Source: Ostreococcus lucimarinus
Taxonomy: Eukaryota
DNA: 64,000 nucleotides
NCBI GenBank assembly: GCA_000092065.1
Contig: CP000587.1
Direction: 5' to 3' (one strand)
The notes under the pieces are model-generated. The model worked only from the letters and a program-made list of their open reading frames with translations. It was not told the DNA's origin and searched no databases. The translations under genes and the position numbers were made by a program. Positions 1 through 62,874 of the stretch are shown here, piece by piece (positions within the stretch are counted from its first letter, which is position 1; each line of letters opens with the position of its first letter).

Positions 1-612
1 CGCGAAGAAGTGGATGCGTTCTTAACGACACGAAAGTCTGAGAACCTGAGCCAGCAACTGATTCATCGCTTGATGTTGTCTCCTTCAGCCGCGCTCGCGG
101 CGGGAACAAAGTACAACGTCCCGTTGATCAACGCCTTTGTGCTCTACGTCGGCGTCCAAGCGATTCAAGCAAACCGCAGTAAGGACGCCTCGAGCGGCAT
201 CGCGCAAAGCGCTCCGATGGAGTTGTTCTCGCAACTTATCGAATCGCTCGATATGGAGGGCCGATACCTGTTCGTGAACGCTATCGCGAATCAGCTTCGG
301 TATCCGAACTGCCACACGCACTACTTCTCGTGCGTGATTCTCTTTTTGTTTTCCGAAGCCAAGTTCGCGATCATTCAAGAGCAAATCACGCGCGTTCTCC
401 TCGAACGCTTGATCGTCAATCGGCCACATCCGTGGGGTTTGTTGATCACGTTCATCGAGCTCATCAAAAATCCGCGGTACAACTTCTGGGGACACGCTTT
501 CACCAAGTGCTCGCCGGAGATCGAGCGACTCTTCGAGTCTGTCGCTCGCTCGTGCTTACCGCAACAAGACAAGGAGGGCGTCCCGAAACCTTCGCCGGTG
601 CCCGCGTCATGA
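1..612 (+). CDS. CNOT1: CCR4-NOT complex subunit 1 (CNOT1/Not1), C-terminal fragment; the gene continues upstream of the window
   Basis: Frame 1 is open from base 1. The translation ...RYPNCHTHYFSCVILFLFSEA...ITRVLLERLIVNRPHPWGLLITFIELIKNPRYNFW... is almost collinear with the conserved C-terminus of Not1/CNOT1. Stop at 610-612. The track 'M' at 10 is a GTG codon. Confidence 0.85.
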   Translation, partial: REEVDAFLTTRKSENLSQQLIHRLMLSPSAALAAGTKYNVPLINAFVLYVGVQAIQANRSKDASSGIAQSAPMELFSQLIESLDMEGRYLFVNAIANQLRYPNCHTHYFSCVILFLFSEAKFAIIQEQITRVLLERLIVNRPHPWGLLITFIELIKNPRYNFWGHAFTKCSPEIERLFESVARSCLPQQDKEGVPKPSPVPAS

Positions 613-777
613 TACCACCCTCTGTTACAACATACTCTCCCATGACCAATGAGAAACAGAAAAAGAACAAAAAAAGCTCTAGAGCTAGAAGACTCGTCGC
701 GCGTCGCCTAGGGCGTCGACGAAGTCGTCATCGGTAATTCGACGAAACATACAAAAAAATTAAATTACGTTACAACT

Positions 778-1716
778 CTAGTCTTCGCGCGCCGCGAGAG
801 ATCGCCGACGCTTCGTCGGTGACGCGTCGAGCAGATGCAACCACTTCGTCGCCGCCAACGTCGCCGCGCCGGACGAATCGACGTCGGCGTATCGAGGCGA
901 CGTCGCGACCGTCGTCAACTTTTGCGCGCAGTCGGCGTGCCATTCGTCCACGCGCGCGCTCAGAGAAGCCACCCACGCGCGACCCGCGTCGCCGTACCGC
1001 GAGATATACTTTTCTTTCACCTCCTCGGCTTCTCTACGAAGAAAATCCGCTTCGGCTTCGGCAACTTTCGCCCGACACTTGGCGCGAGCCTCCTCGAGCC
1101 TCGACTCCCGAGCGAGCTCGTCGTCGGCGTCGTCGACGAAACGCAAATCCCGCACGCCCGCCGCCCGTCGCGCCCGCGCGCACTCTCGCGCTAATTCTTT
1201 CACGCTTTCAACGTCGAATCGTCGCGAAATCGCGTTTCTCGACGCCAAGTCCACCGCGTCCAGAGCCCCTCGCAGCGCGCCTCTCGCTTCGTCGTCCTCC
1301 GCCTCCGCCTCCGCCGCCTCGTCGCGCGCCGCCTCCTCGTCGAACACCGCCACGTCGTCGTCTCCGCGCGCCGACCGCAACCGCGACGTCGATGACGCAC
1401 ACGACGTCGTCGTCGACGCCGCCGCGCCCTCCCACCCCCCGCCGTCGTCGTCGTCGAAATCCAACGCGCGCGCGACGCCTTCGCCGTCCCGTCGCGCGTC
1501 CCGCGTCGCCTTCCCCCCTACTTCCCAGATCCCGCCCGATCGCGCGCCCGCGCTGTCCAGATCCCCCGCCCACCGCCGCGCGCGTCCGTCGTCGTCGCCG
1601 TCGTCTCGCCACAGCCGAAACCGCGTCCCGCGTCCGTCGCCCGCCGTCGCCGCGCGCCCGTTCGCCTTCGCGCCCCGTCGCGTCGCGAATTCGGAGTAGT
1701 CGTCGCCCGCGTCCAT
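778..1716 (-). CDS. hypothetical protein; acidic low-complexity N-terminus, plausible coiled-coil C-terminal half
   Basis: 312-aa ORF. The C-terminal 150 aa (VESVKELARECARARRAAGVRDLRF...EVKEKYISRYGDAGRAWVASLSARVDEWHADCAQKL) is not Arg-junk-like. The N-terminus is compositionally biased. No family recognised. Confidence 0.3.
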   Translation of the reverse strand: MDAGDDYSEFATRRGAKANGRAATAGDGRGTRFRLWRDDGDDDGRARRWAGDLDSAGARSGGIWEVGGKATRDARRDGEGVARALDFDDDDGGGWEGAAASTTTSCASSTSRLRSARGDDDVAVFDEEAARDEAAEAEAEDDEARGALRGALDAVDLASRNAISRRFDVESVKELARECARARRAAGVRDLRFVDDADDELARESRLEEARAKCRAKVAEAEADFLRREAEEVKEKYISRYGDAGRAWVASLSARVDEWHADCAQKLTTVATSPRYADVDSSGAATLAATKWLHLLDASPTKRRRSLAARED

Positions 1717-1854
1717 CGCGTCGCGACGCCGGAGACGTCGACGCGTCGCGAAACGATTCGCGTCGCGTCGGCGCGTCGTCTCTGAACGCGCGCGCGTCCG
1801 TCTCTCGCCCGGCGACGCGCGACCCGTCGCGTCGACGCGGCGGTTTCAAACGCA

Positions 1855-2070
1855 TCGCGTGTCCGACCGACCAATCTATGTACAAACAGTCACGTACCAA
1901 GTATACATCAACGTCGGTTTCGAACGCTCGCGGGTCCGACCGACCGATCTATGTACAAACAGTCACGTACCAAGTATACATCAACGTCGGTGTCGAACGC
2001 GTCGCGTGTCCGACCGACCGATACCGACCGATCTATGTACAAACAGTCACGTACCAAGTATACATCAACC
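1855..2070. repeat. tandem repeat, 3 copies of a ~74-bp unit (copy 3 carries a 10-bp internal duplication), locally AT-richer
   Basis: The core atctatgtacaaacagtcacgtaccaagtatacatcaac occurs at 1874-1912, 1947-1985 and 2031-2069, each preceded by (c)gtccgaccgacc. It lies between the start of the minus ORF (1716) and the AGPase start (2434). Confidence 0.9.
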
Positions 2071-2433
2071 GCACGTACACTACTCACGAAAACGCCCATC
2101 GCGCGTAAAAGTCAAAAAAAAGCGACGCCCGCGCGGATATTTCGCGCGTCTCGACCCCCCCCCCGTCGAGTCGTGACTCGTCGTGACCCGATTTCGGGTG
2201 TCCGCGTCACCGCGTATCTCGACGGCCCGCGCGGCACACCGCGACGACGCGGCTCGACGACAGCCGACGCGCGACGCGCGCGACGCTCGACCGCGACGCG
2301 CGACGACACGGATTCGCGACCGAGGGTACGACGACGATAACGCGACCGCGCGACGGCGAATCGACGGCGCGATCGACGGCGATCGCGCGATCGATTAATC
2401 GCATCGATTCGCGTCGACGCGAGATCGAACGCG

Positions 2434-4140
2434 ATGATGACGGCGCGAGGCGCTTCGACGCGCGCGAACGGCGCGCGAACGACGCGTGGGAACGCGGGAA
2501 GGCGCGCGAGGGCGGAGGGACGACGGGGGGGGACGCGAGCGCGGAGCGCGGGGGGGCGATTCGACGCGAAGAGCGCGAACGCGACGGATTCGGAGACGAC
2601 GACGACGGCGGCGACGCGAGAGACGGTCGCGGAGGACGGTGATGGGGCGAATGAGGCGGTGCGGAGAGTGGCGGAGGATCACGTGCGGGCGATGGAGGCG
2701 CTGAAAGATGGTGGGGTGGGCGGGCGCGGGACGAGGAAGTCGAGGGAGGCGGCGTCGACGAGACGGGATTTTCGAGCGCGGGACGCGAGGTGCGTCGTGC
2801 TCGCGGGGGGGGCGGACGAGACGAATCCGTTGACGCGTGGGCGCGCGCGAAGTGCGGTGCATCTGGGGGGGGCGTATCGAGTGATTGATTTTCCTTTGAC
2901 GAATTTAATCAACTCGGGCATGCGTCAGGTGTACGTGCTGACGCAATACAACAGTCACTCGCTGGTGACGCACGTCAACCGCGCGTTCCCGATGGAGATG
3001 TTTGGAAACAACAACGAAGGGTTCGTAGAGGTGTTGCCGACGTCGCAGACGCGCGAGCACGGGGAGACGTGGTCGATGGGGAGCGCGGATTGCGTCGCGA
3101 GGCACCTCACGCACGGTTCGCTCACCAAGCATAGTTTCGACATGCGCTTGGAGGACGAGTGTTTGCAAAGACACGGATCGCTCGAAGCGTGCGCGGCGAA
3201 CCAAACCGACGGGATCACCATCGTGTTGGCCGCCGAGCAGTTGTACACGATGGACTTCAACAAGCTCTTGGAGGCGCACTTGAAGTCGGAAGCAGACGTC
3301 ACCGTCGCGACGTGCGATCAAGTCACGGCGGAGAACGCATCGAGATTGGGCATCATGGACGTCGACGAGCACACGTCGAGCATTTTATCCTTCATCGAGA
3401 AGCCTTCGGCCGATCAGTTGCTCGAGTTTATGCAGTGCTCGACGGAGAATGAGCTTCTCGAGTGCAAGCTCAACGCCAACATGGGCGTGTACGTCTTCAA
3501 CAACTCAGCCCTGGAAGAGCTTTTGAGAGATTCAAAGAATCCGGCGGAAGAACGACACGAATTCGGCAGGGACATCATTCCGCACGCGGTGAACGCGGGC
3601 TACGACGTACGTTCGTACAAGCACTCTGGTTATTGGAAGCCGCTTCGAACGCTCGCCGACATTTATGAGGCGAACATCTCAGTCGCCACCGGCGGCGACG
3701 CCGCGTCACTGATCGACTTTGATCGATTAGTGTACACGAAACCCAACTTTTTGCCGCCTAACACATTTTACGGATCTTCGTTGACCGAGCGTTCAATCAT
3801 TTCGGACGGGTGCGTCATTCGCGACGGCGCCAAAATCATCAACTCCATCGTCGGTCCGTGCACTGTGATCGACAAAAACGTCGATTTGGAAGGAGTCGTC
3901 GTGGTCGGTCGCGACGAAATCCTGAAGCGGTCCGGAGGGGACAAAGTCGCCGATATCGGCGCGAATACCATCATTCGTAAGTGCATGGTTGATTCCGACG
4001 CCGTCATCGGAGCCAACGTTCGCATTCTCAACGAGGCAGGCATTCAAGAACTCGATCGCACCGAGGATGGATACATCATCAGTGAAGGCATCGTCACCAT
4101 CCTCGGAGGCGCCGTGATCCCCGATGGGTTCACAATCTAA
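2434..4140 (+). CDS. glucose-1-phosphate adenylyltransferase (ADP-glucose pyrophosphorylase), divergent, with a long Arg/Gly-rich N-terminal extension (possible transit peptide or over-extension)
   Basis: 568-aa ORF. VVLAGGADETNPLTRGRARSAVHLGGAYRVIDFPLTNLINSGMRQVYVLTQYNSHSLVTHVNRAFP matches the AGPase N-terminal nucleotide-binding region. Left-handed beta-helix C-terminus present (SIISDGCVIRDGAKIINSIVGPCTVIDKNVDLEGVVVVG...). Stop taa at 4138-4140. Confidence 0.8.
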   Translation: MMTARGASTRANGARTTRGNAGRRARAEGRRGGTRARSAGGRFDAKSANATDSETTTTAATRETVAEDGDGANEAVRRVAEDHVRAMEALKDGGVGGRGTRKSREAASTRRDFRARDARCVVLAGGADETNPLTRGRARSAVHLGGAYRVIDFPLTNLINSGMRQVYVLTQYNSHSLVTHVNRAFPMEMFGNNNEGFVEVLPTSQTREHGETWSMGSADCVARHLTHGSLTKHSFDMRLEDECLQRHGSLEACAANQTDGITIVLAAEQLYTMDFNKLLEAHLKSEADVTVATCDQVTAENASRLGIMDVDEHTSSILSFIEKPSADQLLEFMQCSTENELLECKLNANMGVYVFNNSALEELLRDSKNPAEERHEFGRDIIPHAVNAGYDVRSYKHSGYWKPLRTLADIYEANISVATGGDAASLIDFDRLVYTKPNFLPPNTFYGSSLTERSIISDGCVIRDGAKIINSIVGPCTVIDKNVDLEGVVVVGRDEILKRSGGDKVADIGANTIIRKCMVDSDAVIGANVRILNEAGIQELDRTEDGYIISEGIVTILGGAVIPDGFTI

Positions 4141-4303
4141 ACAATAAACAGAACACAGCGCCGGGCTCAAGCCATTTTGAACCCGCCGCGAGCGAAATGA
4201 AAATAGGGACGCAGGCGGAAACCGTAGAGCGCGTCAGAATTTGTTGTACCAAACCGAAGATTATTACGCTGACGATGCACCATTACTATCATCAATACGT
4301 CGT

Positions 4304-4308
4304 TACAA
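4304..4308 (-). terminator. candidate green-algal poly(A) signal TGTAA (minus strand) ~45 nt downstream of the transporter stop
   Basis: Plus-strand ttaca at 4304-4308 is TGTAA on the minus strand. TGTAA is the usual poly(A) signal in green algae. Confidence 0.35.
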
Positions 4309-4349
4309 CGCGTCTAAGAAATACTAGTAGAAATAATTGCTAAATGGAC

Positions 4350-5435
4350 TCACAAATCCGCCGAGCCGTTGCTCGAACGCGGCGAGTCCAAGAGCTTTTC
4401 GCGCTCGACTTCGCCGTCGCTCGAAGCCGTGATTTTGCTCACATCCTCGTCTGTTTTATACTTTTGATAATACGCGAATCCCAAGACGTTCATCGCGTAT
4501 CCGACGAGCTGCACGGGCGTCGTCTTCTCGCCCATGAAGACGACGCTAAACATGATGATTGCGACGTTGCGAACTTGACCGGCGGCTTTAAACGTCAGCG
4601 ACCCGCACGTCTTGATCACCCCCAAAGTGGTCACCATTACGAGAAACCCTAACACTGACACCGCGACGAACGGCCAAGGGTTGGCGCGAACGATGGCTAA
4701 GTCTCCTCTCAACGTAATCTCTCGCTGCTCGAAAATCGCCACGCCGACGGAGAGAAAGAAGAAATTCGCGGGACACGTGTAAAACAAACCCTCCAGTAAC
4801 CCAAACCCACGATTGCCCATGAAATGTTGAAACAACACCATGCGCATCGCCTCTGCACCTTCGCCTATGATCATGAGCGACAACCCCAACACCGTAAACG
4901 TTTCCTCCGTCGCGCACGCCACCGCCATGCCGACAGTCATCGTACCCACCGCTATCACCTTCTCCTTCGTCGCCGTGTCTAGACCCACGACGACCAACAT
5001 TAAAAACACCACGCACGGCGACAGGGACTTCATCATCTGTATGAAGCTCACGCTGAGGTACAAATATAACTGATTCCCCGCCGCGAACGTCACCGCGGTG
5101 AAGAACCCGATCGGAAACACCGTCACGAGCCACTCCTTCAGCGAAAGCGTGCGCTCCAATTTCACCGAATTCGTCAACACTAAAATCGCCGCGATCATCC
5201 ACGACAGCAGCGGTCCCGTCGCGCTGACGGCGATCGGGTACGGGAAGTCGTATCTGTTCAACACCGCGTCGTTCACCAAGATGATCAGCCCGCTGCACGT
5301 CCCCCACGCGAGCAGGTACAGCGTCGCTTTGAGCGTGTACAGCGCTCGCGTCAGTTCCGCGCTCGGCGCTCGCGAGCTCGGACGCCCCGCGATCTCGCGC
5401 GCGAGCGCTTTAAGCGCCGACATGGTCGCCAACAC
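4350..5435 (-). CDS. triose-phosphate/phosphate translocator or nucleotide-sugar transporter family (TPT/DMT superfamily) membrane protein
   Basis: 361 aa with about 9 hydrophobic helices. Similar to the TPT/NST family throughout (..FPYPIAVSATGPLLSWM...MMKSLSPCVVFLM...KAAGQVRNVAIIMFSVVFMGEKTTPVQLVGYAMNVLGFAYY). Stop tga (revcomp) at 4350-4352. Confidence 0.8.
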   Translation of the reverse strand: MLATMSALKALAREIAGRPSSRAPSAELTRALYTLKATLYLLAWGTCSGLIILVNDAVLNRYDFPYPIAVSATGPLLSWMIAAILVLTNSVKLERTLSLKEWLVTVFPIGFFTAVTFAAGNQLYLYLSVSFIQMMKSLSPCVVFLMLVVVGLDTATKEKVIAVGTMTVGMAVACATEETFTVLGLSLMIIGEGAEAMRMVLFQHFMGNRGFGLLEGLFYTCPANFFFLSVGVAIFEQREITLRGDLAIVRANPWPFVAVSVLGFLVMVTTLGVIKTCGSLTFKAAGQVRNVAIIMFSVVFMGEKTTPVQLVGYAMNVLGFAYYQKYKTDEDVSKITASSDGEVEREKLLDSPRSSNGSADL

Positions 5436-5648
5436 CTCGCGTCAGCGTCAACACCCTCGGGACGACGCGAGACGATCTCGGGACGACGCTCGCGACGACG
5501 ACGACGCGCGCGACGTTCGCGCGTCTCGTCTTCGTCGCGCGTCGACGTTCGCGCGCGCGGCGCGGCGCGGCGCGAAGTGGCGCTCGCGCGTCTCCGCGGC
5601 TGCCTGAGGACTACGAATTCTACTACAAAGTCAAATCAATCGCCGCGC

Positions 5649-6059
5649 TCACGCCGCGCCGTCGCCGCCGCCGTCGTCCCGCTTTTCTACCTCGTCGTCG
5701 TCGCCCTCGTCCCTCGTTTCCTTGGCCTCGGCGTCTCTCGCCTTTTTCGTCCTCTTGGCGTCGCGAAACGCGTCCAGCGTCGCCCTGACGTCGTCCACCA
5801 GTTCGCCGAAATCGCACTCCTCGATCGCCGCCAGCACGTCCGCGTCGCTGATCGTCGAGCGCTTGTGATCGCGGCAGACGTCGTTCGCCGTGGCGGTGAG
5901 GTAGTGGATGAAGATTTTCGCGCACTCGCCGTAGGCTGTCAGGGCTTCTTTTTGAATGTTTGGTTCGAACGATTGGCCCTTGGCGTCGACGTTATCGAGC
6001 GTCGAGAGCTTGTGCTTGACGAGGCGCTTGATGTGCGCGCGGGGGAGGTCTTCGTCCAT
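5649..6059 (-). CDS. histone-fold protein of the NF-YB / DNA polymerase epsilon subunit 3 (POLE3/DPB4/CHRAC) / NC2 class, with an acidic C-terminal tail
   Basis: 136 aa. LPRAHIKRLVK...ISDADVLAAIEECDFGELV is the canonical H2B-like histone-fold signature of CBF/NF-Y-type subunits. Followed by a D/E-rich tail. Confidence 0.7.
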   Translation of the reverse strand: MDEDLPRAHIKRLVKHKLSTLDNVDAKGQSFEPNIQKEALTAYGECAKIFIHYLTATANDVCRDHKRSTISDADVLAAIEECDFGELVDDVRATLDAFRDAKRTKKARDAEAKETRDEGDDDEVEKRDDGGGDGAA

Positions 6060-6211
6060 CGCGAGCGATCGGGGCGCGGACGACGCGCGCGCGCGTGTGC
6101 GGATCGGAGGGACGGCGAAGCGCGAGGCGAAGCGCGAGGCGAGCGAAGGTTCGCGTACACGGTGCGACTGACGCGCGATTACAACGGCGAGGCGGCGAGA
6201 TCAAAAACACT

Positions 6212-7993
6212 CTACGAGTAGCGCCAATTGAAACCTTTGAGGCTGTTGCTCAGCTCGCCGACTTCCTTGGTGAGGACGTCGTTTTGCGCCTTCAAGTCGT
6301 TCACCACCTTGGCGCGCTCTTTATCGGTGGAATTGAGCGCATCGCGGAGACTGGCCTCGACGGTGTCGGGGTGTAAGTTGGCGTACCTTGCGAGCGCATC
6401 TTCGCGGCCGCCGTCGACCGCATCCACGTTGTAGTCGAAGATGTTGTCCCACTTGTTGTCCAAAAGCGCGAGCGCCGTTTTGAGCGGCGTCGCGGCGTAC
6501 AGGACGCCCGCGCGTTGTTCCACGAGACCCTCGCGAAGGAGCTTGATCATACTACCTTCGATGTCAAAGTCACAATCGACACCGAACACATTCCGCAAGA
6601 AATCTTCGCATTCGATGTCGATTTCCTTCAATGTCATGCTCTTACCTCTGACGGTGAGAATCACAAAGGCGAGCATCATTTCCTTGATCTCTTGATCCTC
6701 CATAGATTCCAAAAGGTGCATCAACATCCCTTCTTGTGCGTTCCTGCTCTTTTGAATAAGATCCTTTGCCATCATGCCGGAGTATCGCGTCCTGGCGACG
6801 TTGATGGCGGTGTACGACTGCCCGAGCTTACCGGCGCACGCGATGAGGAGCGTTTGCATCTTCTTCGTCCAAATCTCACCGGTAACAAACGCCCACAGCA
6901 AAGTGCCGATGGCGACAACGATGGCAATTCCGTTCTGGATCATTTCTTGGAGCTTGACCGAGACCGTCTTCTCCGGGAAAATCATCTCGAGGTCAGCCAT
7001 AGGAATGTCGACGTACGACTTGATGATGAGCGGGCCGCATCCAGAAGGTCCCGCTGCATCGTCGTCGAGCGGTCTCGCCATGCGATAGAGCAGCACGACT
7101 TCTTTGAAAGTTGGCTCTTGAATTTCTAACGTCGAGAATAATTTGCGAAAGAGGACGAAGATGTTCGGCATCAACCTTCGCAGCGTCAGACGTTCTATCA
7201 CAGATGCGTTTCTGTCCTCCACCGTCTTCCCGTCTCCAAACGTCTTCTTCGAATCGCTCGAATTCGCGTTCACGAAAACCGGTTGCTTCTGCCCGAGAAT
7301 TGCCAACAGTGGTTCTTTGATGAGCATGCTGAGAAGCATCTCAATCTTTTGCATGATGAACAACCCCTTCGCCTTGGCGAGGCCCGTGCCTCGCTTGAAC
7401 ACCAACGCTCTTTCGCTAAACTGCGACAACCCAGCGGCGAGCGCCGGATTCTTGCTCAAAAACGTCTTCAGCAACGCTTTATCGTGACAGGACCAATCTA
7501 CGTGCACGGGTAGCGTGAACAAAAAGTCCTCCGCGCTCGCCAACTCCCATTCCTTTTGCGTCAACAACGTGTACTCGGCGTCCGCCATCATCGTACAAAA
7601 CTGCCCCACAAAATCCACGCTCGCCGCCTCGAACGCCGTGGGGTTCAATCGCGCGCCATCGTATCCCACGCTTTTTTCTTCGCCCACCTTGACGTTCGCC
7701 AGCGCGAAATCCTTCTTCACTCGATCCCGTTTTTCCATGGCGCCGTAGTGAAACAAGCTCCGAACCATGCGAATCACGTCCCCGACCGCGCCTCGATCGC
7801 CCTCGGGAATCATCTCCAGCGCGGCGTCGCGCAAAAAGTTCATGCCGACCGGGATGTGCGCCGAGTGTTGGATTCGGATGAAGTTGTTCGTGCGTTCGCG
7901 CGCATCGCGCGACTTTGCGTCGTCGCTCGAACCCATCGCGGCGTCAATCGTCGAGGCTTCGGTCGCGCGCGTCGCGCGTGCGCGCGCGTTCAC
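6212..7993 (-). CDS. conserved hypothetical protein (593 aa) with one predicted TM segment; possibly DUF3754/TMEM143-like (weak recall)
   Basis: Long ORF with non-biased composition. Hydrophobic segment IAIVVAIGTLLWAFVTGEIW. No catalytic motif recognised. Confidence 0.5.
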   Translation of the reverse strand: MNARARATRATEASTIDAAMGSSDDAKSRDARERTNNFIRIQHSAHIPVGMNFLRDAALEMIPEGDRGAVGDVIRMVRSLFHYGAMEKRDRVKKDFALANVKVGEEKSVGYDGARLNPTAFEAASVDFVGQFCTMMADAEYTLLTQKEWELASAEDFLFTLPVHVDWSCHDKALLKTFLSKNPALAAGLSQFSERALVFKRGTGLAKAKGLFIMQKIEMLLSMLIKEPLLAILGQKQPVFVNANSSDSKKTFGDGKTVEDRNASVIERLTLRRLMPNIFVLFRKLFSTLEIQEPTFKEVVLLYRMARPLDDDAAGPSGCGPLIIKSYVDIPMADLEMIFPEKTVSVKLQEMIQNGIAIVVAIGTLLWAFVTGEIWTKKMQTLLIACAGKLGQSYTAINVARTRYSGMMAKDLIQKSRNAQEGMLMHLLESMEDQEIKEMMLAFVILTVRGKSMTLKEIDIECEDFLRNVFGVDCDFDIEGSMIKLLREGLVEQRAGVLYAATPLKTALALLDNKWDNIFDYNVDAVDGGREDALARYANLHPDTVEASLRDALNSTDKERAKVVNDLKAQNDVLTKEVGELSNSLKGFNWRYS

Positions 7994-8221
7994 GCGCGCG
8001 TGCGCGCCGCGTGCGCGCGTGCGGGCGCGTTTACGCGCGTGCGGGCGGGCGCGTGCGACGCGCGCGCGGGAGTGCGGCGCAGAGTCGTCGAGAATTGGGC
8101 GATCGCGCGTCTCGGCGACGCGCGCGGCGGTTGGCGGTTGCGCGCGGAGCGCTGCGGACGCGCGAGGCTACGGCTAATCACAACGTCCGATGGCTACGAT
8201 GACGAAGAGAGATGAGTGCGA

Positions 8222-9388
8222 TCACGTGCTGCGCCTGGCGACGTTCTTCAGACCGACGCCGACGACGGAGCAGAACACGGTGCCGCTCTCGGGCTCGGGC
8301 TGCACGTGAAAGGTGACGCCGAAGAAGGCTTTGAGCGCGCGCAAGGTTTCGATCGCTCGAGGGGTGAGCTGACCGAGACGGATTCTGGACACTTGCTCGG
8401 GACCGATGGCGAGGAGGATGAGGGCGAGGGATTGATGGGTGCTGTCGACGACGCCGCCGCGTTGGATCTCGGCGACGAGCGCCTCGGCGACGCGGCGGCC
8501 GACGTCTTCGGGCACGCGCGCCTCGGCGTCGTCGGCCCATTCTAAATCCGCCGCCTCGCTCATCGCGGACGCGCACGCCGTGGACGCGGCGTCGGCGCCG
8601 AGCACGCAACCCGTGGTGGTTTCGGCGACGAGGGATAATCCGTACCCTGGGCTCTTCCCCGCCTCCGGACCGACGTGATGGTCGGTGAAAATGTACACGT
8701 CTGGAATGAACGCGTTCAACACCCCTCTCGCAGCGTCCACCATGCGGTTTCCATTCTGCGGCGACACCTTGCACGTAAACGTCACCCCTCGCACCCGTTT
8801 CACCAAGCCCTCGTCGCACCAATCCAGCGTCGGCAGCGTTTTCACAATCGGCAACGTCAACCGCACGCGACCGCCGCCGTTCGGCGGACACCCTCGCCGT
8901 TCCACCTCCAGCGCCAATCCATCGTCCACGCCGAAGTGTTTCTTCAGCATCGGCAGCGTCACCGTCCTAAACACGTCCACGCTCACGTCCGCGTCGTCGT
9001 TCGTCACCCCCATGAGCGTCAATTCGATCGGTTTCTTCGCGAACAATCCCAACGCCAGCGTCGGCTCGACGTAATACCCGACGCCCCGGCTCGTCGCGCA
9101 CTCGTGCGTCAGCGCGCGTCCTCCCTTCACCACGCCCGGGTCGAACCGCACCGCGGTGCCGTCTTCGCTGATGTCCACGCGCGTGCCGTTCGTGAGCTTA
9201 TCGATCAGGCGCAGGAGCGAGACTTCGTAATCGCGCAGCCCGACGGCGTCGTCACCGCCGCCTCGCGCGGCGGTTTTGACGCGAATGTCGCGAATCACGC
9301 ACGGCTTACCGCTCAGGACGCTGATCAGGATGCGCGCGCGGAAGTCCTTGGCGCCGGTGAAGCGCGCGGGCGCGCGGGAGGGCGGCAT
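8222..9388 (-). CDS. RCL1: RNA 3'-terminal phosphate cyclase-like protein (RCL1/RtcA family)
   Basis: The ORF runs 8222..9556, but the conserved RtcA/RCL1 fold begins near MPPSRAPARFTGAKDFRARILISVLSGKPCVIRDIRV (ATG at 9386-9388). Similar along the whole length (..RGVGYYVEPTLALGLFAKKPIELTLMGVTN.., ..HQSLALILLAIGPEQVSRIRLGQLT..). Confidence 0.8.
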   Translation of the reverse strand: MPPSRAPARFTGAKDFRARILISVLSGKPCVIRDIRVKTAARGGGDDAVGLRDYEVSLLRLIDKLTNGTRVDISEDGTAVRFDPGVVKGGRALTHECATSRGVGYYVEPTLALGLFAKKPIELTLMGVTNDDADVSVDVFRTVTLPMLKKHFGVDDGLALEVERRGCPPNGGGRVRLTLPIVKTLPTLDWCDEGLVKRVRGVTFTCKVSPQNGNRMVDAARGVLNAFIPDVYIFTDHHVGPEAGKSPGYGLSLVAETTTGCVLGADAASTACASAMSEAADLEWADDAEARVPEDVGRRVAEALVAEIQRGGVVDSTHQSLALILLAIGPEQVSRIRLGQLTPRAIETLRALKAFFGVTFHVQPEPESGTVFCSVVGVGLKNVARRST

Positions 9389-9592
9389 CGCGCGCGCGGG
9401 CGCGGGCGCGAAGTGGCGGCTGCTCGCCCCGAGCCCGCGCTGAGCGCCGAGCGGCGACGCGGCGAACGCGAGCGAATGAAACGCGAGGAATCGCCGTCGA
9501 CGCGCGCTCGGACGCGAAAAGCGAGAAAAGAGTGAGAGATGGTGATTAAAATCCACGACGCGACCGAGCGATGATGGGAAAACGCGGAGAGG

Positions 9593-13241: not shown

Positions 13242-16200
13242 ATGGCGGTGGGAACGCGACGGGAGCGCGATGCGTCGCGAATGTCGCGCGCGCACGACGC
13301 GGATGACGCCGCGGACGCGCGACCGTGGCGATGGCGGCGATGCGGGACGTTTCACGCGTCCGAGGGAGGGATTTGGGGGACGAGCGGGACGACGACGGCG
13401 CGCGCGGCGACGCGATGGGAAAACGCGCCGCTGGAGGGGTTCGGTTTGCGCTTCGCGAGCGATGCGGAGGAGGAGACGACGACGCGCGCGCGAGCGTTGG
13501 AGGCGTGCGCGAGAGAAACGCTCGGAGAGGGCGGGTTGACGAATGAGATGTTGGAGGAGACGGCGCGCGCGACGACGACGCCGAGCGCGGCGAGCGACGA
13601 CGCGGCGACGATTTCGAACATCGAGACGCGGTTGGCGTCGACGCGCGCGATGTTGAGGGGATTGGGCGTCGATGAAGCGAAAACGAAAGCGGTGATGGCG
13701 CGGGCGATGGACGCGTGGGGAGGGGAGATTCGAGAACGCGAACGAATCGTCGACGCGCTGGAGACGCGCTTGCTCGAGGGAGACGAGGACGAGGAGGCGT
13801 TGAATTACATCTTGCGTCGTGCGGTGGCGCGGTTGAGGGTTTTGAAGACGAGTGGAGCTCGTTCGAGGGTCGGCTTGCGGGCGTGTGTGGCGAGCGCGAC
13901 GGCGTCCGTCGCCGCGGCGTCCACCACCGCGGCCGTCGCGGCAAAGTCTACGCCCATCGCGAAGAAAGGCCGCGGTGGAATGTTCTCTTGCTGCGGCGCA
14001 GATTCGACGGCGATCGATGACGACGCTCAAGAGCTCGCGTACGCGCCTTCGGAAAGTGCAGCCGTTGAATGCGAACCGCTTACTTGCGTCGTACGTCTTT
14101 CACGCGTTGGGGAAGAAACGGCGAGCGCATACTCGTCGACATCTCGCGCATACTCGTCGACATCTCGCGCATCTTCGCGAGAAGGAGGCGTTTTGTTCAA
14201 CGCCACGACTCCGTTATTGACCGTTTCCGAAGATGACACGATTGAGTTCAACTTTTACGCGGGCGACGCGCACGAATCCGTCGACGAGAGTGCAGTCGAT
14301 GCGAATGATAGGATGCGCGCCAACGCCGTCATGTCGCCGCACGTCGGGGAAACAAGTGGCAAGATTAGAGGAAGCGCCACCATTTGTGTCGCAGATTTAG
14401 CAGAGACGACGAGAAAAGACGAACCGCACGTGCTCACGATTTTCATCGAGCGGCCGAAGAGTGGAGGGTCACCGGGTCAGGTCTACGGTAAAGCAATCGT
14501 ACGCATTGACAAGTTCGTCGAATCGTTTGACGACGGAACGACGCAGATCGCGACGGCGAAGGGCGACGTTCTGAAAGATGCCGCCGTGCTTTTCGCGGCG
14601 CTCGACAAGTCGAGTGTGCCAAATGTAAAACAGCTTGTGCGCAGCTTCGTGGATCAGCGCGGCGCATGCCCGTCCATTGCTGCACTGGCCGAAATGATTA
14701 CGCTTTGCATTGATTGGCGACTCGAACGCCCGCAACTTGATAGATTACGCCACTGCACAATGGAAGTGTTCGCGGCAATTGCGGTGAATCGAATTACGGC
14801 GAGTGAGAAGCAGCGGTTTGACGAACTTTCCGCGCTCATGTCGAAACAACTAGAAACAGAGCTGTGCAATATTTTGCCGACGGCAAAAGTCGCCGAGCAA
14901 GAACTCGTCGATGTGCTTGACATGGAGTATTCTGCCAGTATCGCCCGCGCGATCATTCCATTATTTGCTTTGACCCTTGGGAGCATTTCAGCCACTCGGC
15001 TCGTGTTGCGGTTGAAAAAGGTCGTTCGCGAGGCCATGCGTAAACGTTGTGTCGAGCACATGGTGAGGGAAAATCCGACAAAGGGCCCTCCCACGGTTGC
15101 GTGCGTGACGTCTATGATATGCAAACTCACCAAACGTTTGCCGCTCGACGCTGCGATTTTATCGCAGTTTCCGTCCGAAGTAGAAGCTCTTTCGGAGGCT
15201 GCGTCGGCGTCGAGTGCTTTCATCGCAAACATTATTACTGAAGTATTTCAGGCGATCGCGAGCATGCGTAGCCCGCCTGATTACGACTCCGGGATGATGG
15301 CACTAGACGATGCGCTGTGCGCGCACAGGAGGGCATTAAAGCGATATGATTTGGTGCTTGCTATGCAGCCGATTTCGTCCCGGTTCATCGATCGGCTCCT
15401 TCAGCCGGCTTTGGATGAAACGCTAGGCACAGTACACCATGCGCTGGTTGCGTGGGTCAAGCAAGAAATTGATGGCGAAAGAACAAATTTAGAGCCCGTG
15501 GACGTCGAAAGAGGAGCGATGCACAGTATGTCGTGCGTCAATCTTTTTTGTGTACTCTACAACATCGATAGAGCAGCGCAAGATCACATTCTTCACGGCG
15601 AAAGAGCGGCGTTCAACGCTACATCGTTGAGTCAAATGTGCTATGAAGTGTTTAAGACGTACGTCAATATTTATGAAAGAGCGTGCTTGGAGGCGATCCA
15701 GAACGCGCGCTTGCATTTGATGCAAGACTCAAAGGGGCAGAATACGAAGACGGCGAATGTTTCGGACGTAAAGTCTCTGATGGTTGGTAACTTTTACACG
15801 CGTCTAAGTAATATTCATCAGTGCATCCTCGCGATCGAACCGTTCATGGAAGAGATGCCGTTACTGTGGTGTTCGTCAAAGTCGGAGTTCGACGAGACAC
15901 TCAAGCGTCAAGCGAGCTCGGAGTATGGTATCGATGACGATCAAGTGATATTGTTTGAGGACGATGAAGTCCATGTCTTCGACGAGAAAAGAATGCTGGA
16001 TACTGATTTCTTCGCGAACAGAATTGTACAGAAACTTCGCACCGTTCGCGCAAACGTCATTGCGTCATTAACGGAGTTGATCGAAGAACGGATTGCACCG
16101 TTTATTCGTGTCGCTATTCTTGACAAGGAAGAAAAGACACGTTCTGCGGCGGTACGCATAGTCTTCATGATGATTGACTCGGAGCTCAAGCTTATGAACG

Positions 16201-17498
16201 AGAGGCTTGCGCCAGGGGCGTTTCGACTGGCGTTGTCTTCGATGCACAAAGGGGTGTGTGATGCGATCGAACAACTCATCCTACACAGACCGATAGAGGA
16301 GGGAGCGCTAGAAGCCAGTGAGCGTTGGAGAGGATTACCAACGCTCACAGAAATGCAACATTCCTTAGTCGTCGAGCTCATGGCAGATGTCAGAGAATTC
16401 TTCCACTGCGACGGTGCCGGCGAGCCTGAGTCAATTCTCAAGGATGGCGAAGGCAGACTGCGCCGTTTGTTGAATTTATGGTTTACGCCCACGATCGAGA
16501 TTATGCGAGAATTCTGGCAGTTGAAAGAAGTATTGTCCCGATCGATCGTTTCGGCGCATGGCAAACAAATCCGACTGCGGTCGATCGGTGGAGTGGCCGT
16601 TCAAGACATCTTGCGCTTTTTGCGTCAGCGTTCAAACGACGCAACAGCAATGGATCTTTACAACGAACAGAGCATGCTGATTACGAAAATGAGTCTAAAA
16701 GCACTCTTTGGCGAACAGTTAATGAGTATCGACTCTTTACTCGGTGCCTGGGTTTGCCGCGATGGTTCTGGCTTAATAGGACGATTCTACATCACGGCTA
16801 CGCAATTGGCGTTTTCGACATCTGGAATGAGCATCGATCACCCGCACGACAGCCAGACAGCGGTCGTCCGAGAGATTCGCAGAATCGCGAACATCTCGCG
16901 TATCGATGCTGCTGATGGTACGCCTGGGCTTCGCATCACATTCGACGATCGTCGATCATTCACTTTCAGTGAATTCGGTGGAATGCACACCGAGTTAAAC
17001 ATTCAAGCTCGAGAGAGGGATTCGTGCGTCGCGGTGATTCGCACGAATCCTTGCTTCTTGCAGCGTCCGGTATTCATGCACGATATTCAAGTCGCACAAA
17101 TTTCAGATCATGCGTGCGAGACTTTAGATGAGGTTGTCAGCGTAGAAACGGCGCAGCGAATGGAGCCACCCACTCTGCCGGCGGATGAGGAAGTGATCGC
17201 CACGTGCGTCTGCGCGCGTGCGAACGGCTTAGCACGCGACTTGGGGAAGTTTACGGTGGCGAGCCAATCGTGCGTGTTTTTACCAGTCAACGGGTCAGGT
17301 CGTGGAGTGTTGTATAAGACTATGACGTCAACGAAGAGGATGCCACAGTTGCGGCCATTCGGTTGGAAGAATGCTGATATCATCATCCCGATACGACATT
17401 ACGAAGAACCCGTGTTGCGCTTGACGGGGATGACGCTCGTTGAAGCCCAGTCGGTTTTCGACGCACTGTCGAGCGCCATTACCGCTTACAAAAGTTAG
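13242..17498 (+). CDS. large uncharacterised protein (1418 aa); possible C2-like region, long helical middle, C-terminal PH/GRAM-like domain
   Basis: Uninterrupted 4.26-kb ORF with ordinary, lower-GC composition. C2-like stretch HVLTIFIERPKSGGSPGQVYGKAIVRIDKF. C-terminal LIGRFYITATQLAFSTSGMSI...GLRITFDDRRSFTFSEFG resembles PH/GRAM folds. The N-terminal 300 aa are low-complexity, so the true start may be downstream. Confidence 0.6.
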   Translation: MAVGTRRERDASRMSRAHDADDAADARPWRWRRCGTFHASEGGIWGTSGTTTARAATRWENAPLEGFGLRFASDAEEETTTRARALEACARETLGEGGLTNEMLEETARATTTPSAASDDAATISNIETRLASTRAMLRGLGVDEAKTKAVMARAMDAWGGEIRERERIVDALETRLLEGDEDEEALNYILRRAVARLRVLKTSGARSRVGLRACVASATASVAAASTTAAVAAKSTPIAKKGRGGMFSCCGADSTAIDDDAQELAYAPSESAAVECEPLTCVVRLSRVGEETASAYSSTSRAYSSTSRASSREGGVLFNATTPLLTVSEDDTIEFNFYAGDAHESVDESAVDANDRMRANAVMSPHVGETSGKIRGSATICVADLAETTRKDEPHVLTIFIERPKSGGSPGQVYGKAIVRIDKFVESFDDGTTQIATAKGDVLKDAAVLFAALDKSSVPNVKQLVRSFVDQRGACPSIAALAEMITLCIDWRLERPQLDRLRHCTMEVFAAIAVNRITASEKQRFDELSALMSKQLETELCNILPTAKVAEQELVDVLDMEYSASIARAIIPLFALTLGSISATRLVLRLKKVVREAMRKRCVEHMVRENPTKGPPTVACVTSMICKLTKRLPLDAAILSQFPSEVEALSEAASASSAFIANIITEVFQAIASMRSPPDYDSGMMALDDALCAHRRALKRYDLVLAMQPISSRFIDRLLQPALDETLGTVHHALVAWVKQEIDGERTNLEPVDVERGAMHSMSCVNLFCVLYNIDRAAQDHILHGERAAFNATSLSQMCYEVFKTYVNIYERACLEAIQNARLHLMQDSKGQNTKTANVSDVKSLMVGNFYTRLSNIHQCILAIEPFMEEMPLLWCSSKSEFDETLKRQASSEYGIDDDQVILFEDDEVHVFDEKRMLDTDFFANRIVQKLRTVRANVIASLTELIEERIAPFIRVAILDKEEKTRSAAVRIVFMMIDSELKLMNERLAPGAFRLALSSMHKGVCDAIEQLILHRPIEEGALEASERWRGLPTLTEMQHSLVVELMADVREFFHCDGAGEPESILKDGEGRLRRLLNLWFTPTIEIMREFWQLKEVLSRSIVSAHGKQIRLRSIGGVAVQDILRFLRQRSNDATAMDLYNEQSMLITKMSLKALFGEQLMSIDSLLGAWVCRDGSGLIGRFYITATQLAFSTSGMSIDHPHDSQTAVVREIRRIANISRIDAADGTPGLRITFDDRRSFTFSEFGGMHTELNIQARERDSCVAVIRTNPCFLQRPVFMHDIQVAQISDHACETLDEVVSVETAQRMEPPTLPADEEVIATCVCARANGLARDLGKFTVASQSCVFLPVNGSGRGVLYKTMTSTKRMPQLRPFGWKNADIIIPIRHYEEPVLRLTGMTLVEAQSVFDALSSAITAYKS

Positions 17499-17575
17499 AC
17501 GTCAAAAACGCGAAAGAACAGCAGAGTAGCGGTGTGATATATCATTATGTAGTCGTAGCAAATCGTGTTTCATAT

Positions 17576-29844: not shown

Positions 29845-29953
29845 ATTTGCCGCGTGATGCGTACTAAGTCTCGCCATCCCTGGCGAATTTTGTTCTCAAG
29901 AAGTCATCGCCAGTCGACGATGAATCCCAAACTCTTACAATAAAATGCGTCCT

Positions 29954-29958
29954 TGTAA
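29954..29958 (+). terminator. candidate poly(A) signal TGTAA ~110 nt downstream of the stop at 29844, within an AATAAA-like context (cttgtaataaag)
   Basis: tgtaa at 29954-29958 in the AT-richer convergent spacer 29845-30003. Confidence 0.35.
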
Positions 29959-30003
29959 TAAAGATGATATCTCCAAATGACTAGTGCTACTGCGCGCTAT
30001 GTA

Positions 30004-49015: not shown

Positions 49016-49203
49016 TCGTCATTTAATTCTCATGCGCCCGCGCGTCGATCCAGATCGCGCGCGCACTGATCCCTTAACGATGCATCATTATACGTACTCA
49101 TAATGCGTATAATGATGTATCGTAGTGCTATCCGTCTGCATCTCGACGACGTCCCGGCGCCCGCGGCGGCGCGCCGCGCACCGCGACGCGACGACGGGCG
49201 ACG

Positions 49204-54970: not shown

Positions 54971-55014
54971 GATGTGACGAATGTGCCGCGGTGACGCGGC
55001 ACATTCGTCACATC
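54971..55014. repeat. perfect inverted repeat (20-bp arms, 4-nt loop) forming a strong hairpin, preceded by a 15-bp direct repeat x2 (54931-54960)
   Basis: gatgtgacgaatgtgccgcg (54971-54990), gtga, cgcggcacattcgtcacatc (54995-55014). It lies ~137 nt after the MaoC stop and ~210 nt before the next plus-strand ORF. The six-frame track reads the same peptide (RCDECAA.TRHIRHI) on both strands here. Confidence 0.85.
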
Positions 55015-62803: not shown

Positions 62804-62874
62804 GTAGTTGCAATGTACTAGTTACATCGAATGCGTTAAGTTATTCTATAGTGTGGAGTCAATCGTGTCACTCC

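Follow-up and report, generated by a model that had tools for sequence, protein, structure and literature searches.

A hypervariable minisatellite formed by recurrent tandem duplication in a divergent promoter region of Ostreococcus lucimarinus

The tandem array between two divergently oriented genes in the 64,000-nucleotide stretch of Ostreococcus lucimarinus DNA analysed here (hereafter, the window) is a single-locus, lineage-specific, hypervariable promoter minisatellite that arose by recurrent tandem duplication and slippage. Its units fall in the ~10–100-bp range and lie head to tail, its copy number varies among individuals, and it occupies one locus in the window and the metagenome collection. 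A minisatellite was among the readings offered in the initial annotation of this DNA, and that reading has been strengthened by the finding that natural alleles differ from one another both in copy number and in the structure of their junctions. As to what the array does, we consider it somewhat probable, on balance, that it is a young, lineage-specific, single-locus VNTR in a shared divergent promoter, which multiplies a functional block and by its copy number tunes transcription. An effect of copy number on expression is plausible, and we infer that the array is a promoter tuning repeat and not a dedicated module conserved between species.

The array and its divergent intergenic region

The array is the top-scoring tandem repeat that TRF finds in the window (period 73, 3.0 copies, 89% matches, score 319). 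It is built around a 39-bp core, ATCTATGTACAAACAGTCACGTACCAAGTATACATCAAC, whose exact occurrences begin at 1874, 1947 and 2031; TRF and exact matching thus bear out the original description of three perfectly conserved copies at periods of 73 and 84. The palindromes described with them, GTAC-N10-GTAC and GTATAC, are present in each of the three cores, and the GTCCGACCGACC leader, a short CCGA-type direct repeat and likely slippage substrate, accompanies each unit. The internal 10-bp duplication reported in the third copy was located as well. No fourth match to the core was found in the window at up to three mismatches, nor any match in 100 dinucleotide shuffles, and a sensitive blastn search of the whole array against the window returned nothing beyond the array itself. 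The features of the locus are as follows, in window coordinates; a strand is assigned only to the two genes.

778–1716, minus strand: left gene, a 312-aa hypothetical protein (XP_001418974.1, O. lucimarinus CCE9901)
1717–2433: divergent intergenic region, the putative shared promoter, at the centre of an island of nucleotide diversity (ORF map, sliding pi)
1841–2069: tandem array of three units, at about 1841–1913, 1914–1986 and 1987–2069 (TRF and repeat-family search)
1861–1872: leader GTCCGACCGACC of unit 1, found again at 1934–1945 and 2008–2019 (motif coordinates)
1874–1912: core copy 1, 39 bp, 36% GC, with TGTACA, CACGTAC and GTATAC/TATACATC (exact match)
1947–1985: core copy 2, identical to copy 1 (exact match)
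2013–2032: 10-bp tandem duplication, ACCGACCGAT twice, in the leader of unit 3 (TRF and allele comparison)
2031–2069: core copy 3, identical to copy 1 (exact match)
2070–2088: unique tail CGCACGTACACTACTCACG after the last core, which holds a fourth CACGTAC and is part of the period-90 duplication type
2089–2214: conserved central promoter block just downstream of the array, with 17 of 126 sites variable in 12 alleles
2434–4140, plus strand: right gene, a 568-aa AGPase-like protein with the Pfam domains NTP_transferase and LbH_GLGC

The divergent intergenic region is GC-rich, and the array forms its AT-richer centre: GC content is 51% in the array and 36% in the core, against 70–76% in the other DNA of the same region. 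The 70% GC background first ascribed to the surroundings of the array is therefore correct for the intergenic flanks, and not for the window as a whole, at 59.7%. Within the window the convergent spacers are AT-rich (GC 0.39–0.45; the 3′–3′ spacers at 613–777, 4141–4349, 17499–17575, 29845–30003 and 62804–62874), and those on the promoter side are GC-rich (0.62–0.77) and packed with CGCG/CGACG low-complexity repeats. Because promoter-side spacers are GC-rich in this window, the AT-richer array block is conspicuous. Two other repeats were seen elsewhere in the window. The spacer upstream of the DUF3754 gene contains a long repeat that is (CG)n-like and Z-DNA-prone (7964–8068; period 2 and 41, TRF score 125), and there is a perfect 21-bp tandem repeat of 2.3 copies and in-frame length within the long ORF at 13242–17498 (14125–14172).

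The spacer between the divergent genes, at 717 bp, is among the longest in the gene-dense window, and the array begins 125 nt away from the hypothetical gene's start codon and ends 365 nt short of that of the AGPase-like gene. Since it is nearer the hypothetical gene, allotting it to the AGPase gene is arbitrary, and either or both genes may be affected. The initial annotation had placed the array upstream of an ADP-glucose pyrophosphorylase gene; the divergent arrangement that it described is correct, but the array is closer to the other gene, and the AGPase-like protein is a divergent paralogue, with 33–36% identity to canonical bacterial GlgC and to plant AGPases and large subunits. Its orthologues, at 59–68% identity, are found only in other Ostreococcus-like lineages; weaker relatives, at 34–41% identity, may belong to other Mamiellales. 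The protein has a long low-complexity N-terminus. Three AGPase genes are annotated in O. tauri (PMC3056741). At the position of the left gene, a syntenic ORF of 291–311 aa is present in three other Ostreococcus lineages (L023, L026 and L027) and in the divergent lineage represented by L040.

The start of one Logan contig, L002, was considered as a transcription start site and rejected, as it precedes the end of that core's third copy by exactly 30 nt and represents a k = 31 de Bruijn break; the ends of Logan contigs at the array are such graph breaks and not transcript ends. A literature search for SRR1179203 gave no match.

Copy number, junctions and diversity among wild alleles

Environmental orthologous loci were retrieved via the proteins of the 90% clusters of the flanking genes, and copy number was read from 17 fully spanned alleles and three partial environmental alleles, 97–99% identical to the window. 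Among the 17 alleles spanned by both unique flanks, six carry one copy (L005, L008, L011, L017, L021 and L041), ten carry two and the window carries three, and partial alleles hold at least 3.3 copies (L010, three copies and the start of a fourth at the contig end) and at least two (L020), all these numbers being lower bounds, as short-read metagenome assemblies can collapse repeats. Many contigs stop at the array and one scaffold (L006) has an N-gap there, which is expected of a repeat. Novel junctions, on the other hand, cannot come from assembly collapse, so that the independent duplication types stand despite the lower-bound counts.

Four such architectures were found. In the first (J1), ATCAAC is joined to G(T/G)CGGT(T/G)TC, with a period of 73/74, or of 84 where the 10-bp indel is present. 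The second (J2) joins CTCACG to GGTGTC at a period of 90 and takes in the 19-bp tail; it occurs in three contigs, one from an ENA Tara assembly (L003) and two from a metagenome-contig collection (L019 and L022). In the third (J3, in L040), GTATACA is joined directly to GCGTGTCC, giving a period of 51, and the fourth (J4, in L042) is a partial duplication of the 3′ end of the core and the tail, with a 21-bp filler. The sole segment common to all four is the (A/G)AG(T/C)ATACA part of the core (~10 bp). The 10-bp ACCGACCGAT indel also segregates in the wild, being present in the single copy of L005, in copy 2 of L009 and L016 and in copy 3 of L010. At least one copy of the core is kept in every protein-selected allele that spans the site, and none lacks it. 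The suggestion, made from the window alone, that slippage or unequal exchange was recent at this locus is supported.

The array also lies within an island of nucleotide diversity. Among eight alleles compared over positions 1–9400 of the window, pi is 0–0.004 nearly throughout, climbs to 0.010 at 1351–1500 and to 0.026–0.068 across 1651–2400, and is back to 0 by 2551. The island (1350–2550, ~1.2 kb) includes complex indel-substitutions in its CG-rich low-complexity parts. At the 4-fold sites of the flanking genes pi is 0.001–0.006, and in four other nearby spacers it is 0–0.007. In O. tauri, intergenic and synonymous diversity are about equal genome-wide, at 0.009 and 0.01 (PMC5498103), which makes the array spacer an outlier. 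The island is not unique, as smaller peaks occur at other intergenic regions of a 20.7-kb control region (38.4–59.1 kb): there overall pi among ten alleles is 0.0015 and other spacers peak at 0.015–0.028, some of these peaks falling at palindromes that are themselves structurally variable. Variation in this population thus falls generally in promoters, the array spacer forming the broadest and highest peak seen. Balancing selection was considered as the cause of the island and rejected, given a Tajima's D of about −0.5 to −0.6 and the lack of a deep two-haplotype structure; high mutational input fits this value better than maintained alleles do.

Two inverted repeats lie under peaks in the control region. 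At 54971–55014, within another divergent promoter, an inverted repeat whose 20-nt arms match perfectly coincides with a local pi peak of 0.028; its 4-nt spacer and adjacent bases read GGTGAC in the window strain and GTCACC in most wild alleles, resembling an inversion of the loop, and tandem duplications of CACATTCGT occur at the same site in L034 and L035. The other, at 49077–49123, is an 18-nt, 94%-complementary inverted repeat (ACGATGCATCATTATACG / CGTATAATGATGTATCGT) under a pi peak of 0.016–0.020. A DUF202 gene and a MAK11-like gene share the divergent promoter in which it lies, 227 bp long, and the repeat makes up the AT-rich centre of that promoter.

Within the array spacer, variation is unevenly distributed. 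Ten main-lineage alleles show no variation in the first 54 nt beside the left ATG. The conserved block, which contains an A8 tract (2114–2121), GGATATTTC (2135–2143), a C10 tract (2155–2164) and GTCGTGAC twice (2170–2187), has its 17 variable sites in 126, as compared with 68 in 171 in the DNA that follows at 2215–2385 (P = 6e-7), and the tail at 2070–2088 is highly polymorphic (10 of 19 sites variable). The core, scored in its first copy with the truncated J3 end set aside, has five segregating sites in 39; this equals the proportion in the conserved block and is lower than that at 2215–2385 (P = 0.0013) and in the tail (P = 0.003), so that the core is ~3–4 times less polymorphic than its flanks. 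Among main-lineage cores, 21 of 30 are identical. The low polymorphism of the core could reflect a lower mutability of AT-rich, CpG-poor DNA instead of selection, and recent duplication or conversion would by itself leave the core copies identical.

Several smaller variants were noted in the same spacer. The C10 homopolymer at 2155–2164 has allele lengths of C9, C10, or C7 followed by T's. At the equivalent of ~2219, a 7-bp insertion, AAACAGT, segregates (L007, L008, L009 and L017) and makes TCAAACAGTGACG. This is similar to ACAAACAGTCACG, the 5′ half of the core, and a template switch from the array may lie behind it. In one metaSPAdes contig (L013, 3700–3830, corresponding to window ~2263), the proximal upstream region of the AGPase-like gene is fused to an unrelated FMO-like monooxygenase gene; the break sits in CGACGCG low-complexity DNA and represents either an assembly chimera or a real rearrangement.

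Possible effects of the array on transcription

A segment of ~50–90 bp, carrying the only AT-rich, palindrome-bearing block in the upstream half of the spacer, was duplicated several independent times with different breakpoints. We propose that short direct repeats such as CCGACCGACCG and CGGCGG/GTCGG allowed replication slippage or unequal exchange between sister chromatids, in a promoter that seems generally prone to structural mutation. The core would be a functional promoter block, as its low polymorphism, its retention in every allele and its repeated co-duplication suggest, and may hold ACGT-core and GTAC-core factor sites together with the TATA-like TATACATC. The resemblances to ACGT-core and GTAC-core elements extend over 4–6 bp, and we take these matches, like the TATA-like sequence, to be candidate sites. 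A change in copy number would alter the number of such sites and shift the GC-rich upstream half by 51–160 bp from the block at 2089–2214, and transcription of the hypothetical gene, of the AGPase-like gene or of both would shift in a graded way.

Nearly as likely as such tuning, and a serious possibility though one we would put short of an even chance, is that the array is a neutral minisatellite, the most duplication-prone part of a weakly constrained and unstable spacer, with no meaningful effect on either gene. Its lack of conservation between species, the excess of spacer diversity (pi 0.03–0.07) over that at 4-fold sites in the flanking genes (0.001–0.006) with a Tajima's D of about −0.5, the structural polymorphism of other promoters of the 20-kb control stretch at repeats and palindromes, and the coexistence of alleles with one, two and at least three copies are all consistent with neutrality. 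Less easily reconciled with it are the core polymorphism, 3–4 times lower than that of its neighbours, and the convergence of at least four independent duplications on the same ~10-bp part of a core that every allele retains. In addition, 51–160 bp put into a compact bidirectional promoter of 600–700 bp would be unlikely to be fully silent.

It is improbable that the repeat and the ~1.2-kb island around it are the target of diversifying or fluctuating selection on the expression of the AGPase-like gene or its neighbour. In that event, duplications of a functional block would have been kept repeatedly, with populations favouring different carbon-storage settings, and the array would constitute a natural expression dial that could be read straight from metagenomes.

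A dedicated, selected cis-regulatory module, in which clustered factor sites place starch synthesis under light or clock control, is more doubtful still. Each unit does contain an ACGT core (CACGTAC), two GTAC cores and GTATAC, core polymorphism is reduced, and AGPase transcripts cycle daily in O. tauri (PMC3056741). Comparison with other lineages nevertheless argues against such a module. The gene order Not1, hypothetical gene, AGPase-like gene, TPT, NF-YB-like gene and DUF3754 gene is kept in seven other Ostreococcus lineages, but their orthologous spacers cannot be aligned with the array spacer, and the core as a whole is not conserved in them: Smith–Waterman comparison of the core with the seven spacers showed no excess over dinucleotide shuffles (P = 0.14–0.97), and an unbiased count of 7-mers and 8-mers shared with them equals the null. 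Nor is any core motif shared with the ~37 other promoters in the window, as no intergenic region apart from the array spacer contains GTATAC, CACGTAC or TGTACA.

A sign to the contrary is the composite GTATAC-N0-6-YACGTG, which is found here and in two of the seven other lineages (L025 and L026), that is, in three of eight lineages as against 0.01 expected, and nowhere else in the window. Because this motif was chosen after the data had been seen, runs in the opposite orientation in L025 and L026 and is missing from the other five lineages, we regard it as a lead only. The common occurrence of single-copy alleles further indicates that multiplicity is not required, and the gene that the module would serve lies farther from the array than the hypothetical gene does. 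The sole clock-like motif noticed, the evening-element-like GGATATTTC (2135–2143), is invariant in the 12 alleles aligned across it and lies outside the array, 66 bp downstream; the control of starch synthesis by light or clock, which had been raised for the array when it was first described, is thus without specific support. Similar motifs were seen in other alleles and species: an evening-element-like palindromic pair, GAAATATCCGCGCGGATATTTC, in the divergent lineage L040 (about 2668–2690) and in L041, an exact AGATATTT in L042 (about 125–135), and GATATTT in a GCGCG context in the spacers of two other species (L026 and L030).

The initial annotation had also suggested the remnant of a dispersed element. 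That the array derives from a dispersed repeat or a mobile element, as a remnant or as an insertion and whether MITE-like or introner-like, is very improbable. Its locally AT-richer composition and short palindromes would suit such an element, but the core occurs at a single locus in the window and in the metagenome collection. When the metagenome was scanned with a degenerate 28-nt core pattern, the four contigs recovered all corresponded to window positions 1–9341 at 97–99% identity; as the array locus itself gave four contigs, about four more would be expected for each extra genomic copy, and none was seen. Viral contigs scanned with the exact 39-mer and the central 20-mer gave no match. 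The apparent terminal inverted repeat, ACCGAC...GTCGGT, is a product of the duplication junctions: single-copy alleles end in ATCAACCGCACG and lack it, the ACCGAC/GTCGGT pairing being formed only across junctions.

The least credible reading of all is that the units are small non-coding RNA genes in a tandem cluster, such as snoRNA-like ones. A 6–7-bp terminal stem can form around the core in each internal unit, but neither the last unit nor the single-copy alleles have it. An Rfam scan of 1600–2500 at E <= 10 gave chance-level matches only, none of which reaches half its gathering score over the array (the best there, snoTBR5, scores 14 bits where the gathering score is 44; E = 2.9). Whether the unit, the core or the whole array was folded, z-scores on the two strands stayed between −1.4 and +0.2, and canonical boxes of the C/D or H/ACA type were not seen when the units were read by eye. 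A minus-strand C/D-box snoRNA (UGAUGU with a terminal stem) was considered and discarded, as its stem is a by-product of the junctions and its boxes are non-canonical.

Comparison with known promoter repeats

A promoter minisatellite is by itself an ordinary kind of object. If its copy number changes expression, as we consider somewhat probable, the locus would provide a compact natural allelic series of one to at least four promoter units beside a starch-pathway gene in an ecologically dominant picoalga, a series open to scoring in metagenomes and to testing in a relative that can be transformed. The array is a ready intraspecific marker for O. lucimarinus populations even if it is neutral. 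The locus also illustrates how a compact genome concentrates variation in its promoters, with pi of up to 0.07 here as against about 0.001–0.004 in the surrounding genes.

In yeast, tandem repeats in promoters are modifiers of expression and a source of 'transcriptional evolvability'. Human promoter tandem repeats likewise act as expression modifiers and eQTLs (PMC4857002). The array resembles both in its head-to-tail arrangement within a promoter, its natural variation in copy number, its candidate factor sites and the changes in spacing that accompany each copy. It differs in having a long unit (51–90 bp) that is AT-richer than its surroundings and is no AT- or GC-rich microsatellite, and in that several independent duplication architectures coexist, as opposed to one unit that expands and contracts. 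With the classical hypervariable minisatellites it shares a unit of 10–100 bp, a single locus, many length alleles, variant units and raised local diversity, although it is very short (one to at least four units) and not GC-rich relative to its surroundings.

ACGT-core elements of the G-box family are bound by bZIP and bHLH proteins, and GTAC-core elements by SBP-domain factors such as Chlamydomonas CRR1. The core of the array includes both of these 4-bp cores, in CACGTAC, TGTACAA and GTATAC; the likeness to these plant and algal elements consists of 4–6-bp matches, and none of the window's other promoters shares the motifs. Genomes of the Mamiellales also have dispersed short elements, such as the introners of Micromonas; like them the array is a short repeated sequence in a prasinophyte genome, but it is undispersed, lies outside introns and occupies one locus.

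In a related picoalga, Bathycoccus prasinos, INDELs in the TOC1 and yrdC promoters serve as markers of diversity (PMC11539686). Those markers belong to another genus and to other genes; they are indels with two or three alleles, hundreds to thousands of bp in size, and are not described as tandem arrays. What the two systems have in common is an intraspecific length polymorphism of promoters in the Mamiellales, which is detectable in environmental DNA and can serve as a population marker.
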